Positions 7,849 to 27,163 of a stretch of DNA of 27,163 nucleotides are shown piece after piece. Position 1 is the stretch's first letter; every line of letters starts with the position of its first letter. The translations under genes were made by a program, and so were the position numbers. The notes under the pieces were generated by a model that saw nothing but the letters and a program-made list of their open reading frames with translations, ran no database searches and was not told the DNA's origin. The DNA is from a virus (taxonomy: Duplodnaviria > Heunggongvirae > Uroviricota > Caudoviricetes): IMG/VR virus record IMGVR_UViG_2531839527_000008; one strand, given 5' to 3'.

Positions 7849-10071
7849 TTGGCTGTTCAATTCGCTTATCCGTGGAACGTCCCACGGTCGGCAATCTCCA
7901 GCCCATACCTTACTTATGAGCAACAGCATCGCCGCGACCGTATGTTCGCGGCTTTGCTGCATGCAAAAAAGGTGCTTTCTCTCCAGCCCGACTGCGTGCG
8001 GTTAGATGTTTATCGCACTGCTGCGGTGCTGGAACAAAATCAGGGTAGTCAACGAGCCAATGCATTTTTAATCAGCTTCTGCAAAAAGGCATTGCCGCGT
8101 CTTGAACTGGTCGCAAAAAAATACGAATGCGCTGGTATCAACAGCAAGGTATCAACCGCTGTTTTTGGAAGTCATTTTGATACTCAGCAAATGCAATATC
8201 TGTCGTCACGCATGGTTAATATGGTCGCCCGATATAACCGTCTCCCGGACATGTCGCGCGCTGATGTTGACCTGTTGGCCGCTGATATTGCTAATTTCAT
8301 TCGTGGTGAACTTGCCAACATTAATGACCACGGATTCGGCGAGCTTAAAACGCTGTACACCTGGTATATTCGTGCTGGCTTTATTTCCCTCCAATTCAAC
8401 GTTATCCCACCACATTGGGAGCGGGTTGAAAAAAAATATGTCGGTGCGGATGAAATCGCACCGGCTATCGCCAAAATGTTTAACGATGGGTGGTGGCGCG
8501 GTCGTTTGCGCCGTGTAGCAGCTACGTGGCGCGAACACCTGCAAATTGCAGTCGGCAACGTCAGTAAGAAAAAAAACACTTACGCGAGTAAAAACTGCGT
8601 GACTGACTGGCGTGAACAAAAGCGCCGCACTCGTGAATTTCTCAAAGGTCTGGATCTCGAAGACGAAGACGGCAACCGTATCAGCCTAATTGAAAAATAT
8701 GATGGCTCAGTTGCTAACCCTGCGATTCGCCGCTGTGAGCTCATGACCCGCATTCGTGGGTTTGAAAACATCTGTAATGAGCTCGGTTATGTCGGTGAGT
8801 TTTACACTCTAACCGCGCCGTCAAAATATCACGCCACGACTAAAGCCGGTTACCGTAACAGCAAATGGAGCGGTGCCAGCCCGGCTGACACGCAAAACTA
8901 TCTAACCGGTATCTGGGCGCGTATCCGTGCCAAACTACATCGGGAAGATGTCCGTATTTTCGGTATTCGTGTCGCCGAGCCCCATCACGACGGCACTCCA
9001 CACTGGCACATGCTGATGTTCATGCTGCCGGAAGATGTTGAATATGTTCGCTCCATCGTCCGTAAATACGCATGGAAAGAAGACCGCCACGAACTGAAAA
9101 GCGATAAATCCCAAAAAGCACGTTTCCACGCGGAGTCCATTGACCCGGAGAAAGGCAGCGCAACCGGCTATGTTGCTAAATACATTTCAAAAAATATCGA
9201 CGGTTATGCTCTCGATGGTGAAACCGATGATGAAAGCGGTGAGCTGCTGAAAGAGACAGCCCCCGCCGTTTCAGCATGGGCTGCGCGCTGGCACATCCGT
9301 CAGTTTCAGTTTATTGGTGGTGCGCCGGTGACGGTTTACCGTGAGTTGCGTCGCCTCGCTGATACCGAAACCGCGCACGGTCTGAGCGTTGAGTTTGCCG
9401 CCGTCCATGATGCCGCCGACGCTGGTGACTGGGCTGGTTATGTTAATGCTCAGGGTGGGCCGTTTGTCCGTCGCGATGATTTACAGGTGCGCACACTGTA
9501 TGAACCGCGTACCGAGCTTAATCAGTACGGTGAGGAAACGGTATGTATTAAGGGGGTCTACGATTCCTCCATAGGTGCAGGAAGCCCGATTTTAACCCGG
9601 CTCACTCAGTGGAAGATTGTTCCGAAGCGTGCTGTTGATTTGGCCGTTGACCTTCAGGACGGCAAAGCCGTCCCTCGGAGTTCTGTCAATAACTGTACGG
9701 GAAGCGAAAGCGATCCACCGATACTGGATTTAACAAAACCACTGAGTCGGCGTGAAAGACGAGAATTGACCAACCGACTCAGGAAGCAAAAGCCAGCAGC
9801 ACGGCGAAAATTCATCCACGGAACGGATGAGCAAAACGCAGCTATAGCTAAAACTATCGATGAGATACATCTGACAACCGGCATTAATATCAGCCGGGGC
9901 GAAGCCCTGCACCTGATGGCCGGTGGTAAAAGTTGTTTTGATGGTAAATGGCTACGCGGAACGGCCAAAGGAGAAATATTTTCCGCAGCACCATCGCATG
10001 AGGCTAAAGCTCGGAAAATCCTTAATCGTGTTGCGGCGATGGCTGAAGCATCAAAACCAATACATGAGTAA
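7849..10071 (+). CDS. A: replication initiation endonuclease (P2 gpA / 186 RepA family)
   Basis: 740 aa; TLTAPSKYH, EPHHDGTPHWHMLMF and GYVAKYISKNIDGYALDG motifs; apparent TTG start at 7849 preceded by GGGGGG. Confidence 0.9.
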   Translation: MAVQFAYPWNVPRSAISSPYLTYEQQHRRDRMFAALLHAKKVLSLQPDCVRLDVYRTAAVLEQNQGSQRANAFLISFCKKALPRLELVAKKYECAGINSKVSTAVFGSHFDTQQMQYLSSRMVNMVARYNRLPDMSRADVDLLAADIANFIRGELANINDHGFGELKTLYTWYIRAGFISLQFNVIPPHWERVEKKYVGADEIAPAIAKMFNDGWWRGRLRRVAATWREHLQIAVGNVSKKKNTYASKNCVTDWREQKRRTREFLKGLDLEDEDGNRISLIEKYDGSVANPAIRRCELMTRIRGFENICNELGYVGEFYTLTAPSKYHATTKAGYRNSKWSGASPADTQNYLTGIWARIRAKLHREDVRIFGIRVAEPHHDGTPHWHMLMFMLPEDVEYVRSIVRKYAWKEDRHELKSDKSQKARFHAESIDPEKGSATGYVAKYISKNIDGYALDGETDDESGELLKETAPAVSAWAARWHIRQFQFIGGAPVTVYRELRRLADTETAHGLSVEFAAVHDAADAGDWAGYVNAQGGPFVRRDDLQVRTLYEPRTELNQYGEETVCIKGVYDSSIGAGSPILTRLTQWKIVPKRAVDLAVDLQDGKAVPRSSVNNCTGSESDPPILDLTKPLSRRERRELTNRLRKQKPAARRKFIHGTDEQNAAIAKTIDEIHLTTGINISRGEALHLMAGGKSCFDGKWLRGTAKGEIFSAAPSHEAKARKILNRVAAMAEASKPIHE

Positions 10072-21858: not shown

Positions 21859-22734
21859 CTAGCCTCGTAAATATCGTTTAGTAAATTTCGTGTTTGGTCT
21901 GGATGATAGGATTTGTCTTTCTATTTCACTATCACAGTCTATATAGTCTAGTGTATTAGCTTCTATAAGTTTGTTCACGTCAATATTTTTTGCATCGATT
22001 ATGTTGGCATTTCTAAGGTTTGCATTGGTGTATTCCACTTTATCCAAATCACACTCTCTGAGTACGCAACTTTTCATTTCCGCATTGGAAAAATCCCCAC
22101 CATATAAATAGCAGCCTTCAAAAATAACACCGTTTAACTTTGAATCCTGAGCTTTAATATTTTTTATTTTACACTTTATAAATTTTACGTTTTTCATTTT
22201 GCTCTTGCTAATATTTAATGCCTGGATTGTACATCCAGTGAAAGAACAGTCTCTTATGTTAGATTTTTCCATATTTAACCCAGATAGTTCTGAGGTTTTA
22301 AAGTGTAAGTATTTAATGGTAAAAAGGTCACCCAACTCCATTCTGGGTATGTCTATATTGAAGACACCTTTATTGTTGAGCTGTCTTATTATTTTTATTT
22401 TTTGTATTTTCAAATCAACATTAACGTGCTTAGCTAAGTTTCCCAAATCCTCAAGAAGTTCATTAATCGTTTCTTTGTTTTGTCTTCTGTATTCAAAGTA
22501 ATAAAGGATGACACCTAATACAAAAAAATCCAAAATGGATGAATTTGCATTTATTAGGAACCCAGACAGGAATGAATCATTGTAATTACCATAGTGTATA
22601 GAGGCAAGTGTTACGCCAAATGCATATAAAATAAAAATAATAAACACGTGCTTCATTTTGCATAAGGATTGTATTATTGGTTTTATGGCATCAATTTTGT
22701 TCATTGCTGCAGCAGCGAAAGATTTAAAAGTCAT
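21859..22734 (-). CDS. AT-rich cargo membrane protein with C-terminal pentapeptide-repeat domain
   Basis: 291 aa; two hydrophobic helices near N-terminus (HVFIIFILYAFGVTLASI, FLSGFLINANSSILDFFVLGVILYYF); tandem A(N/D)LxN-like pentapeptides (…TNANLRNANIIDAKNIDVNKL…); occupies the S-V junction on the opposite strand. Confidence 0.6.
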   Translation of the reverse strand: MTFKSFAAAAMNKIDAIKPIIQSLCKMKHVFIIFILYAFGVTLASIHYGNYNDSFLSGFLINANSSILDFFVLGVILYYFEYRRQNKETINELLEDLGNLAKHVNVDLKIQKIKIIRQLNNKGVFNIDIPRMELGDLFTIKYLHFKTSELSGLNMEKSNIRDCSFTGCTIQALNISKSKMKNVKFIKCKIKNIKAQDSKLNGVIFEGCYLYGGDFSNAEMKSCVLRECDLDKVEYTNANLRNANIIDAKNIDVNKLIEANTLDYIDCDSEIERQILSSRPNTKFTKRYLRG

Positions 22735-23873: not shown

Positions 23874-24782
23874 ATGGCAACCGTTGACCTGAGTCAGTTA
23901 CCCGTTCCCGATGTGGTTGAGGAACTGGACTATGAAACTATCCTTGCGGAACGCATTGCGACGCTGATTTCGCTCTATCCCGAAGACCAGCAGGAGGCCA
24001 TTGCCCGGACGCTCACACTTGAGTCAGAGCCGATTGTTAAGCTGCTGCAGGAAAACGCCTACCGTGAAGTTATCTGGCGTCAGCGGGTGAACGAAGCCGC
24101 GCAGGCGGTGACGCTGGCCTACTCCGCCGGTAACGACCTCGACGTCGTAGCCGGGAACAATAATACCGAACGCCTGACCATCACCCCGGCGGATGATACC
24201 ACCATCCCGCCGACACCTGCCGTTATGGAATCTGATACCGACCTGCGACTGCGCACGCAACAGGCGTTTGAGGGATTGAGCGTGGCGGGTCCGGTCGGTG
24301 CATATGAGTATCACGGCCGCAGCGCCGACGGGCGGGTCGCTGACGTTTCGGTCGCCAGCCCGTCGCCAGCCTGCGTGACGATTACCGTGCTATCGCGTGA
24401 GGGGGACGGCACTGCCAGCCCTGAGCTACTGGCGATTGTTGATAAAGCGCTGAACGCCGAAGATGTGCGCCCGGTAGCTGACCGGGTGACCGTCCAGTCA
24501 GCCGAGATTGTGCCGTACCAGATTGACGCGACGATCTACGTTTACCCCGGCCCCGAATCTGAACCCATCAGGCAGGCGTCAGAGCAGAAGTTGCAGAGCT
24601 ACATCAGCGCGCAGCACCGCCTCGGGCGTGATATCCGTCTGTCAGCCATTTATGCGGCGCTGCATGTTGAGGGGGTGCAGCGTGTCGAGCTGACATCACC
24701 GCAGGCCGACATAGTGCTGAGTAAGTCGCAGGCGTCGAACTGTACCGAGTACCAGATAACTATCGGGGGCTCGGATGAATGA
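23874..24782 (+). CDS. J: baseplate assembly protein J (P2 gpJ family)
   Basis: 302 aa. Confidence 0.88.
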   Translation: MATVDLSQLPVPDVVEELDYETILAERIATLISLYPEDQQEAIARTLTLESEPIVKLLQENAYREVIWRQRVNEAAQAVTLAYSAGNDLDVVAGNNNTERLTITPADDTTIPPTPAVMESDTDLRLRTQQAFEGLSVAGPVGAYEYHGRSADGRVADVSVASPSPACVTITVLSREGDGTASPELLAIVDKALNAEDVRPVADRVTVQSAEIVPYQIDATIYVYPGPESEPIRQASEQKLQSYISAQHRLGRDIRLSAIYAALHVEGVQRVELTSPQADIVLSKSQASNCTEYQITIGGSDE

Positions 24783-25383
24783 CCGGCTATTACCCGTTGG
24801 CTCGTCGCCGCTGGAGGTTGCCGCCGCTGCCGCGCTCTCTGAGATTCAGCGTGTGCCGGTACCGCTGCGCACTCTGTGGAACTGGCGCACCTGCCCGGTA
24901 AAACTGCTGCCGTATCTGGCGTGGGCGCTGTCGGTCGACAGGTGGGATGAGAAATGGCCGGAGGCGACAAAGCGTAGCGTCTGCGCGTCCTCGTTTTTCG
25001 TCCATCAGCACAAAGGCACCATTAGCGCATTGCGTCGGGTGGTTGAGCCGCTCGGCTTTCTGATTGAAGTGCGCGAGTGGTGGCAGCTCAACGAGGAGCC
25101 AGGCACATTCCGCCTCGTTGTCGGCGTGCTCGATAGCGGCATTACTGACGAAATGTATCAGGAGCTTGAGCGCCTGATTGAAGACGCCAAACCGGCAAGT
25201 CGCCACCTGACCGGGCTGGCTATCAGTCTGAGCTCGACCGGCGAACTGTATGTCGGCGCGGGATGCTATCACGGCGACGCGCTGACTGTTTACCCCTACA
25301 CCCCCGAGGAGATTGTCGTCGGCGGTGAATATTACCCGGCCTCGGCCATCCATTTGATTGATAACCTGAGAGTGAACGCATGA
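24775..25383 (+). CDS. I: baseplate/tail protein I (P2 gpI family)
   Basis: 202 aa; overlaps J stop and H start. Confidence 0.82.
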   Translation: MNDRLLPVGSSPLEVAAAAALSEIQRVPVPLRTLWNWRTCPVKLLPYLAWALSVDRWDEKWPEATKRSVCASSFFVHQHKGTISALRRVVEPLGFLIEVREWWQLNEEPGTFRLVVGVLDSGITDEMYQELERLIEDAKPASRHLTGLAISLSSTGELYVGAGCYHGDALTVYPYTPEEIVVGGEYYPASAIHLIDNLRVNA

Positions 25384-26336
25384 CCGCAAAATATTTTGCC
25401 ATTCTGACCAATCAGGGCGCGGCGCGGCTGGCGAACGCGGCGGCACTCGGTACCAAACTCAACCTGACGCAGATGGCCGTCGGTGATGCGAATGGTACGT
25501 TGCCGACCCCTGACCCGGCGCAGACGAAGCTCATTAACCAGAAACGCATCGCGCCGCTGAACCTGCTGACCGTTGACCCGGCCAATACCAGTCAGATTAT
25601 CGCGGAACAGATTATTCCCGAGAATGAAGGTGGTTTCTGGATCCGCGAGATTGGTCTCTATGACGATGATGGTATTCTGATTGCCGTGGCGAACTGTCCG
25701 GAGACCTACAAGCCACAACTGCAGGAGGGAAGCGGTCGCACGCAGACCATTCGCATGATTCTGATTGTGTCGAGCACATCGGCAATCACCCTGAAAATCG
25801 ACCCGGCAGTCGTGCTGGCAACGCGCCAGTATGTCGACGACAAGATTATCGAGGTGAAAGGATATGCTGATGACCTGATGAAAAAACATGTTGAGGCCGC
25901 CAATCCACACAAGCAGTACCCGTTAATCGCTAATGCTCTGAAAGAAATGGTTGACGCGGGACTGGCCGGCGACGTTCTTAAAAACCTTGGTTTGGGGGAA
26001 TTGGCTCTGGCTGGCGCAACAACCGGCGCTATGTTGGTGAATGGGTATGTAGCAATTCCATTAATTATTTCTGGCGTTCGGAGACCACTTATTATCCAGT
26101 GGGGAGTGGGGCAGTTTGGGGGAAGTCTGGGGGATGATGCGGGATATTTAAACAATTTCCCTTTCGCTTTTCCGTCGGCGTGCTACGTGATGGTTGCCAG
26201 CCACGTGGGGCATACACCTTCGGGTGCCGGAATACTATCTGCTTCCGCAATCACAAAAAGCGGCTTTCGTGGTTTTTCCAGCGTAGCGACTGCCGCAAAT
26301 CCTGTATCGGGCTGTTATGTTGCTATAGGAGGGTGA
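25380..26336 (+). CDS. H: tail fibre protein (P2 gpH-like conserved N-terminal domain plus short variable C-terminal domain)
   Basis: 318 aa; N-terminal MTAKYFAILTNQGAARLANAAALGTKLNLTQMAVGDANG typical of P2-type H; C-terminal part begins at the crossover site. Confidence 0.8.
   Translation: MTAKYFAILTNQGAARLANAAALGTKLNLTQMAVGDANGTLPTPDPAQTKLINQKRIAPLNLLTVDPANTSQIIAEQIIPENEGGFWIREIGLYDDDGILIAVANCPETYKPQLQEGSGRTQTIRMILIVSSTSAITLKIDPAVVLATRQYVDDKIIEVKGYADDLMKKHVEAANPHKQYPLIANALKEMVDAGLAGDVLKNLGLGELALAGATTGAMLVNGYVAIPLIISGVRRPLIIQWGVGQFGGSLGDDAGYLNNFPFAFPSACYVMVASHVGHTPSGAGILSASAITKSGFRGFSSVATAANPVSGCYVAIGG
25975..26000. promoter_or_regulatory. Hin/Gin/Cin/Pin-type DNA-invertase crossover site within the tail-fibre gene
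   Basis: TTCTTAAAAACC-TT-GGTTTGGGGGAA: 26-bp site with 12-bp imperfect inverted half-sites, close to remembered hixL TTCTTGAAAACCAAGGTTTTTGATAA. Confidence 0.55.
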
Positions 26337-26337
26337 T

Positions 26338-26772
26338 GTGTTTTTTAGTCCATCTTTAAATATTTTTGTGAATCCTGCGCTTAAGGATGACTACATCAAT
26401 GTAAATTCATGGCCAGATGATGCTGTTGAAGTTGATGAGCAGGTGTATATTGAGTTTTCCGGATTACCGCCGAAAGGAAAAATCCGTATCGCTGGGGAAA
26501 ATGGTTTTCCTGCATGGTCTGAAATTCCACCACCAACGCATGAGGAACAGATTGCCGCAGCCGAATTGAAAAAACAGCAATTGATTAATCAGTCCAACGA
26601 ATATATGAATACCAAGCAATGGCCTGGTAAAGCGGCTATTGGTCGTCTGAAAGGTGAGGAACTGGCGCAATATAATTTGTGGCTGGATTATCTGGACGCA
26701 CTGGAACTGGTTGATACCTCCAGTGCTCCAGATATTGAATGGCCTACGCCTCCGGCAGTTCAGGCCAGATGA
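26338..26772 (+). CDS. tail fibre assembly (chaperone) protein
   Basis: GTG start 5 nt after AGGAGGG; C-terminal LWLDYLDALELVD...APDIEWPTPP motif typical of Tfa/gpG/U proteins. Confidence 0.72.
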   Translation: MFFSPSLNIFVNPALKDDYINVNSWPDDAVEVDEQVYIEFSGLPPKGKIRIAGENGFPAWSEIPPPTHEEQIAAAELKKQQLINQSNEYMNTKQWPGKAAIGRLKGEELAQYNLWLDYLDALELVDTSSAPDIEWPTPPAVQAR

Positions 26773-27163
26773 TATCCGGCGCGGTGCTCGTAACTGTTGC
26801 CGTCACCGCGTCAATGTAATCAAGCACGGCGTTAAGCCGGGTGGTTTCTGCCTGCGTCAGCTTCCGCCCGGCCTGTAATTTCAGCTGAATCAGACTGATG
26901 GAAGCCATTGCAGCATCAATCAGTGACTGGCGCTGTGCTTCTGCCGCTTCTACTGCGGCACCGTGTTGTGCCTCAGTATCTGTCACCCATTTCTCACCAT
27001 CCCATTTATCATATGGCGTTAACGGTGAAAGCGTGACATAACCGTTTTTGATGGCACCGATATAATCCACTGTAACAGCAGCACCATTTTCGATTGAGTA
27101 AACAGTCTCATTGCGATGGTCTTCTTCATGGCTCCATCCCTTACCTGTAAATACTGCCACTCT
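26744..27163 (-). CDS. second tail fibre assembly protein on the opposite strand (alternative Tfa of an invertible segment), 5' end beyond window
   Basis: C-terminus LNAVLDYIDAVTATVTSTAPDIIWPELPEA parallels the + strand Tfa; convergent and overlapping with it at 26744..26772. Confidence 0.6.
   Translation of the reverse strand, partial: RVAVFTGKGWSHEEDHRNETVYSIENGAAVTVDYIGAIKNGYVTLSPLTPYDKWDGEKWVTDTEAQHGAAVEAAEAQRQSLIDAAMASISLIQLKLQAGRKLTQAETTRLNAVLDYIDAVTATVTSTAPDIIWPELPEA

Follow-up and report, generated by a model that had tools for sequence, protein, structure and literature searches.

Invertible tail-fibre segments have been described in several phages. In the C segment of P1 (invertase Cin, cix sites) and the G segment of Mu (Gin, gix sites), a 26-bp crossover site with half-sites of the form TTxTCxxAAACC lies within a tail-fibre gene at the junction between its constant and variable parts, and two alternative C-termini are each accompanied by their own assembly gene. 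We took the cix sites and the enhancer from the annotated P1 record. It gives cixL as TTCTCTTAAACC-AA-GGTTTAGGATTG and cixR as TTCTCTTAAACC-AA-GGTATTGGATAA, marks the crossover at the central dinucleotide, and places cixR in gene S at the Sc/Sv junction and the enhancer within the 5' end of the invertase gene. Fels-2 of Salmonella (Peduoviridae; invertase Fin) is a P2-like temperate myovirus with the gene order I-H-tfa-tfa'(-)-H'(-)-invertase-sheath (FI). In E. coli, inversion has been shown to occur in culture at P2-like prophage loci of strain E2348/69 and at the P segment of the K-12 element e14 (pinE); these prophage tail-fibre inversions are driven by the Pin family, and populations contain the two orientations side by side (Goldberg et al. 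2014, PMC4272514).

Here, we analysed a stretch of viral DNA of 27,163 nucleotides (the window). It covers a P2/186-like prophage from its left end to two-thirds of its length; the insertion point lies just downstream of yfiB. Over its final 7784 bases, the window agrees with E. coli E1739 (NZ_CM180506.1) at all but one base; thus, we used E1739 to read on past the window end, where a window coordinate equals the E1739 locus coordinate plus 19379. We consider it very likely that a 26-bp sequence in the tail-fibre gene H is the left crossover site of an invertible tail-fibre segment of about 1.8 kb in this E. coli prophage. The system is of a known kind, in which an invertase of the Din family flips a tail-fibre segment, as in Fels-2, P1 and Mu.

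When comparing the locus to the described systems, we find that the left site has the same half-site and core architecture as cixL and cixR, although several half-site positions differ. The gene order is that of Fels-2 and also that of two relatives with intact invertases, TW10598 and ECJXMCRH7. The invertase of these relatives shares 79% identity with P1 Cin and 86% with the Fels-2 invertase, and close homologues are found in many P2-like phage records. Sequence homologous to the P1 enhancer is present in the 5' part of the invertase gene. In contrast to our prophage, P1 has a C segment of about 4.2 kb, is a different type of phage, and carries a functional Cin gene on the opposite side, beside the site distal to Sc. 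The invertase of Fels-2 is intact, whereas only a remnant is present here, and the Fels-2 sites are surrounded by 204-nt inverted repeats of 92% identity, whereas here little is repeated beyond the 26-bp sites; furthermore, H is much shorter here (318 aa). A loose regular expression for crossover sites gave no match in Fels-2, whose sites are embedded in the 204-nt repeats. The E2348/69 and e14 loci likewise have an intact adjacent invertase, which is lacking here, and the orientation variation that we describe is documented between genomes.

The prophage and its surroundings

The prophage genes in the window comprise those for an integrase, a CI repressor, CII, Fil, a replication endonuclease, portal, terminase, capsid, lysis and baseplate proteins, as well as I and H (Table 1). 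A DUF2511 gene is also found at the left end of the prophage (2590-5786), and homologues of CII and Fil follow the CI-type repressor. The immunity region is thus of the 186 type and not of the P2 type. In the late operon, the pentapeptide-repeat gene looks like a moron or cargo gene; TW10598 has a shorter pentapeptide-repeat variant at the same position. Upstream of the prophage, an IS1 element has inserted at yfiR. The diguanylate cyclase DgcN is repressed by YfiR, a periplasmic protein, and thus the insertion may deregulate c-di-GMP synthesis in the strain from which the window stems.

Table 1. Coordinates of features in the window and in the E1739 sequence that continues it (window numbering)
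Feature	Position	Strand	Remarks
IS1 transposase gene	about 1-265		E1739 annotation; cut by window start
yfiR fragment	about 322-423		E1739 annotation, 'missing N-terminus'; directly upstream of dgcN/yfiN
dgcN/yfiN	413-1639		E1739 annotation
yfiB	1655-2137		E1739 annotation
Hypothetical gene, prophage left end	2590-3399		E1739 annotation
Integrase	3516-4556	-	E1739 annotation
CI-type repressor	4926-5786	-	E1739 annotation
Pentapeptide-repeat protein gene	21859-22734	-	291 aa; between virion morphogenesis gene and baseplate gene V
Tail-fibre gene H	25380-26336	+	ORF, 318 aa
Constant N-terminal part of H	25380-25974	+	Codons 1-198, outside the segment; Pfam Phage_tail_fib
Left crossover site (probable)	25975-26000	+	TTCTTAAAAACC-TT-GGTTTGGGGGAA; two imperfect 12-bp half-sites, 2-bp core at 25987-25988
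Expressed variable C-terminus of H	26001-26336	+	Within the segment; Pfam Gp53-like_C
Assembly gene paired with expressed C-terminus	26338-26772	+	144 aa; Pfam Caudo_TAP, E 3e-35
Second assembly gene, silent in present orientation	26744-27337	-	197 aa; window holds 26744-27163; Pfam Caudo_TAP, E 2e-25
Silent alternative C-terminus of H	about 27337-27795	-	Past window end (E1739); annotated as partial tail-fibre, 'missing N-terminus'
Right crossover site (probable)	27781-27806	inverted	E1739 locus 8402-8427; reverse complement TTTTCTAAAAGG-TT-GGTTTGGGAGAA
Invertase remnant	27861-28060	+	E1739, 200 bp; annotated 'recombinase family protein, frameshifted, incomplete'
Tail sheath gene	from 28201		Past window end; E1739 annotation

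Crossover sites and contents of the segment

An earlier, sequence-only reading of the window had proposed a 26-bp site of the Hin/Gin type at 25975-26000, at about codon 199 of H, where the conserved N-terminal part of the protein meets a variable C-terminal part. We found the 26-mer TTCTTAAAAACCTTGGTTTGGGGGAA exactly once in the window, at this position and on the plus strand; its first base is the second base of codon 199, and the encoded H peptide is VLKNLGLGE. Shuffled sequence contained no match to the 26-mer in 100 shuffles, and the family core AAACCNNGGTTT occurs once in the window (25982-25993), where 0.07 occurrences are expected. The site shows the half-site and core layout of the Hin/Gin/Cin/Pin sites (a pattern of about TTxTCxxAAACC) and would be the counterpart of gix, cix, pix and hix in this family of serine invertases. 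No further copy with up to 3 mismatches was found in the window, and no inverted repeats were found in 24500-27163, because the partner site lies past the window end.

In E1739, the strongest inverted repeat of the region pairs the left site with locus 8390-8429. The second, inverted site with the same TT core is located there, about 620 bp beyond the window end and 1806 bp from the left site (core to core); it was read from E1739 and not from the window. Its inner half-site differs from that of the left site by one base (A for G), and its outer half TTTTCTAAAAGG is degenerate and matches the half-site consensus poorly. Inward from the right site, an open frame runs on the minus strand (GAPAIGVPFFWPS...), with an in-frame stop at the outer half-site. 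This frame is a silent cassette that has neither promoter nor start codon. Flipping the 1806 bp in silico joins codons 1-207 of H in frame to the silent cassette, which results in an uninterrupted protein of 354 aa. The inverted copy that the sequence-only reading had suggested searching for downstream thus exists, 1.8 kb away in E1739. The same reading had placed both the second site and an invertase past the window; these positions hold in E1739, but the adjacent invertase is only a remnant. Furthermore, the segment does not lie wholly past the window, as the window already contains the C-terminus that is expressed, the assembly gene that goes with it and, on the minus strand, the greater part of the second assembly gene.

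The genes of the segment form two cassettes. Residues 1-150 of H match the Pfam family Phage_tail_fib ('Phage tail-collar fibre protein, N-terminal'; E 9e-63), whereas residues 237-317 match Gp53-like_C (E 8e-12). The 144-aa gene that follows is annotated as tail fiber assembly protein WP_000466305.1. For the 197-aa gene, the Caudo_TAP match was taken from E1739 locus 7365-7958 on the minus strand. Both orientations place an alternative 3' part in frame behind the constant 5' part, with one assembly gene per cassette; one orientation yields the 318-aa H with a gp53-like C-terminus and the other a 354-aa H with a collar-like C-terminus. An inversion switch explains why H is short and why it is followed by pseudogenes annotated as 'partial' tail-fibre and 'frameshifted recombinase': these are the silent cassette and the decayed invertase and not assembly errors.

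We next consider where homology between prophages begins and ends. Among about 35 prophages that bear the invertase remnant, homology stops exactly at both sites. In the anchored comparison, 0-1 mismatch per 25 nt is counted outside the segment, the 26-mers included, compared to 14-22 per 25 nt between the sites; immediately behind the left site, the count is 15-22 per 25 nt. For most of the best 25 of 629 matching records, the upstream part is common to 1-3 bases past the left site and then diverges. Conversely, the segment of the window is found at 99.4% identity behind different constant parts in other E. coli genomes, where homology starts at base 1 or 7 of the site (query 596/602). Homology thus breaks at the site in both kinds of comparison, in agreement with the conserved/variable junction that had been proposed for H.

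Two prophages of TW10598 (NZ_CP035846.1) show alterations at the left site. In the remnant-bearing prophage, all genes from the capsid scaffold gene through the constant H part are missing (locus 2540-2600), so that the terminase gene abuts a tail-fibre C-terminus of 156 aa. The deletion junction (...GACGGC followed by TTTGGGAGAA...) falls within the left crossover site at a distance of 2 nt from the core, and the deletion may be an aberrant invertase-mediated event at a pseudo-site. In the second prophage, which has an intact invertase (locus 4596-4620), the left site reads GGGG and not GGGGG, so that the reading frame of H shifts inside the site. Either a true mutation or a sequencing error in the homopolymer could account for this.

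Invertase remnant and both orientations

Directly beyond the right site, there is a serine-invertase gene, as had been anticipated from the window; however, it is a non-functional 5' remnant of 200 bp. The recombinase fragment matches the Resolvase N-terminal domain (Pfam). Compared to intact genes, a 1-bp deletion near codon 41 shifts the frame, and an internal deletion of about 370 bp extends from after '...WKLDRLG' (about codon 67) to the last approximately 10 codons, which takes away most of the catalytic domain and the entire DNA-binding domain. Where our prophage has the remnant, the relatives TW10598 and ECJXMCRH7 encode intact invertases (188 and 197 aa) with both a Resolvase and an HTH_7 domain; no functional gene with these two domains adjoins the segment here. 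Due to the frameshift and the large deletion, the switch cannot be driven by its own adjacent invertase in this prophage lineage. The remnant keeps the first 198 nt of the invertase gene. Systems of the Hin/Gin/Cin/Pin (Din) family use a Fis-dependent recombinational enhancer in cis, located in the 5' part of the invertase gene. The counterpart of the P1 enhancer (nt 19-90 of cin) is retained in the remnant as an ungapped stretch, in which 59 of 72 bases are identical; since this stretch is also coding, its conservation is no proof of enhancer function.

To look for the other orientation, we used a 700-bp query across the predicted flipped junction and obtained one perfect match, in E. coli E1535. 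The prophage of this genome encodes the same proteins and contains the same remnant, with the cassettes swapped and reversed. The expressed C-terminus of the window is there a separate 'gp53-like' ORF on the minus strand, beside the right site. When E1739 is flipped in silico at the cores, it differs from E1535 by 4 mismatches in 12,700 bases. The G/A difference between the inner half-sites is exchanged between the two genomes, which places the exchange between site positions 12 and 23; the crossover thus lies within TTGGTTTGGG (site positions 13-22), that is, 10 bp including the core. A second pair with a different segment consists of EC1 (Australia) and KE40 (USA), in which the same two assembly proteins occupy swapped positions. 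Flipped in silico, EC1 shows 0 mismatches to KE40 in 9,233 bases. The invertase remnant is present in all four genomes.

Both orientations therefore occur in near-identical prophages, with the exchange at the core, in a comparison between genome assemblies and not within one culture. In this sense, the orientation heterogeneity that the sequence-only reading had asked for is found in both E1739/E1535 and EC1/KE40. We rejected an assembly artefact as the source of the flips, because precise flips are seen in two independent pairs from different laboratories and continents. The segment has evidently flipped recently, at least twice, in the remnant-bearing lineage.

The same deletion junction is found in about 35 complete genomes (21 at at least 99% identity and 14 at 95-99%), and the remnant region is 97.5-100% identical among the remnant-bearing genomes compared. 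Among these genomes, the segment occurs with at least four different contents or orientations. Since a common remnant is combined with differing segments, the decay of the invertase appears to be older than the flips, whose divergence is near zero. The remnants of EC15 and TW10598 (locus 4581-4781 in each) have the internal deletion without the 1-bp frameshift; they are 201 bp long and annotated as 'incomplete' only. This suggests that the large deletion came first and that the frameshift arose later within the lineage.

Source of the enzyme and alternative explanations

The mechanism that we propose takes the action of the enzyme from the Hin/Gin/Cin/Pin family by analogy. The promoter, the start codon and the first 198 codons of H stay outside the invertible segment, and the segment holds two facing cassettes, each with an alternative H C-terminus and the matching assembly gene. 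A serine invertase dimer would bind each 26-bp site, the sites would be brought together, and both would be cut at the central TT and their strands exchanged, such that the segment flips. Through the flip, the constant H part would become joined in frame to the alternative C-terminus (318-aa gp53-like or 354-aa collar-like form), which would change the receptor-binding tip of the virion; an effect on host range is expected by the same analogy. The invertase may be supplied in trans, for instance by another resident prophage, and would act on a locus with both sites and the enhancer-homologous stretch intact. The sequence-only reading had suggested a host-range switch driven by a serine invertase, as in Mu G, P1 C and e14 P, and the partner site, the adjacent invertase gene and the presence of both orientations lend support to it. 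In our assessment, the locus is probably a working or recently active invertible host-range switch that is now flipped in trans by an invertase from elsewhere.

With the cis invertase dead and the flips younger than its decay, the flips would have used an enzyme made elsewhere. Comparative genomics thus suggests that flipping must depend on a related invertase from elsewhere in the cell, for example from another prophage. Hin, Gin, Cin, Pin and Fin are known to complement one another. There, the invertase of one element flips the segment of another, which is what the dead cis gene requires here; however, it has been shown with mutants or by complementation in those systems, whereas we deduce trans action from the comparison of genomes. 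For instance, Kutsukake and colleagues reportedly described in 2006 that Fin of Fels-2 inverts the H segment of Salmonella.

Possible sources of such an enzyme are found in several genomes. The chromosomes of E1739, E1535, EC1 and TW10598 contain 5, 4, 2 and 5 places, respectively, that are homologous to the 5' end of the invertase gene; these are counts of homology and not of intact genes. EC18 encodes an intact invertase of 197 aa; its gene is carried by a second P2-like element that is truncated by IS26, and the sites of this element share the inner half-site GGTTTGGGAGAA. In TW10598, a P2-like prophage with an intact invertase is located about 27 kb from the remnant-bearing prophage. The 3' part of the invertase gene is matched in 3167 of 5426 complete genomes. 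On the KE40 chromosome, the one place homologous to the 5' end is the remnant itself; thus, the flip in this pair must be ascribed to a plasmid-borne enzyme, to an enzyme that has since been lost or to a flip in an ancestor.

An alternative explanation is that the switch stopped when the invertase decayed and that each prophage has been locked since then, with the two orientations either predating the decay or spreading by homologous recombination. The absence of a further invertase-like place on the KE40 chromosome would fit such a relic, as would the finding that all examined members of the lineage have no more than a remnant of the adjacent invertase. Furthermore, segment contents vary among remnant-bearing prophages, so that module replacement by recombination does occur. 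However, a single deletion junction is shared by about 35 genomes with differing segments, and yet the flipped pairs differ at only 4 of 12,700 and 0 of 9,233 bases, which argues that the flips are much younger. In addition, imported DNA would have needed ends exactly at both 26-bp sites and a perfect inversion, twice. We thus regard a switch frozen since the decay as unlikely.

It is highly improbable that RecA-dependent homologous recombination between short inverted repeats made the inversions without any site-specific enzyme: although no functional invertase is encoded beside the segment, the sites of E1739 share an identity run of only 10 bp (TTGGTTTGGG), far below the roughly 25 bp or more that efficient RecA recombination needs, and the crossover falls within this interval, which contains the 2-bp core where serine invertases cut. 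Just as little speaks for the 26-mer being merely a conserved motif of the coding sequence (VLKNLGLGE) at the border between tail-fibre domains, where C-terminal modules are shuffled by homologous recombination, as the sequence is coding and conserved across tail-fibre genes with different flanks, but its inverted copy has the same core, adjoins an invertase gene and has a non-coding outer half with a stop codon, two precise inversions end inside the sites, and the layout is that of the annotated, experimentally defined P1 cix sites.

Returning to a switch that is flipped in trans, we see an even chance that it is an 'orphan' switch, that is, that a P2/186-like lineage, found in 35 or more complete genomes of E. 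coli, lost its invertase while retaining the two crossover sites and the enhancer-homologous stretch, and that it keeps flipping and swapping entire cassettes at the sites via the invertases of unrelated co-resident prophages or plasmids. If this is true, the host-range variation of one prophage depends on other mobile elements in the cell. In itself, the locus adds one more case to the host-range bet-hedging of phages, which is a well-understood phenomenon. The switch of this prophage appears, however, to outlive its own enzyme, which would be a natural case of cross-talk between prophages and a warning that a pseudogene recombinase next door is insufficient to call an inverton 'dead'.
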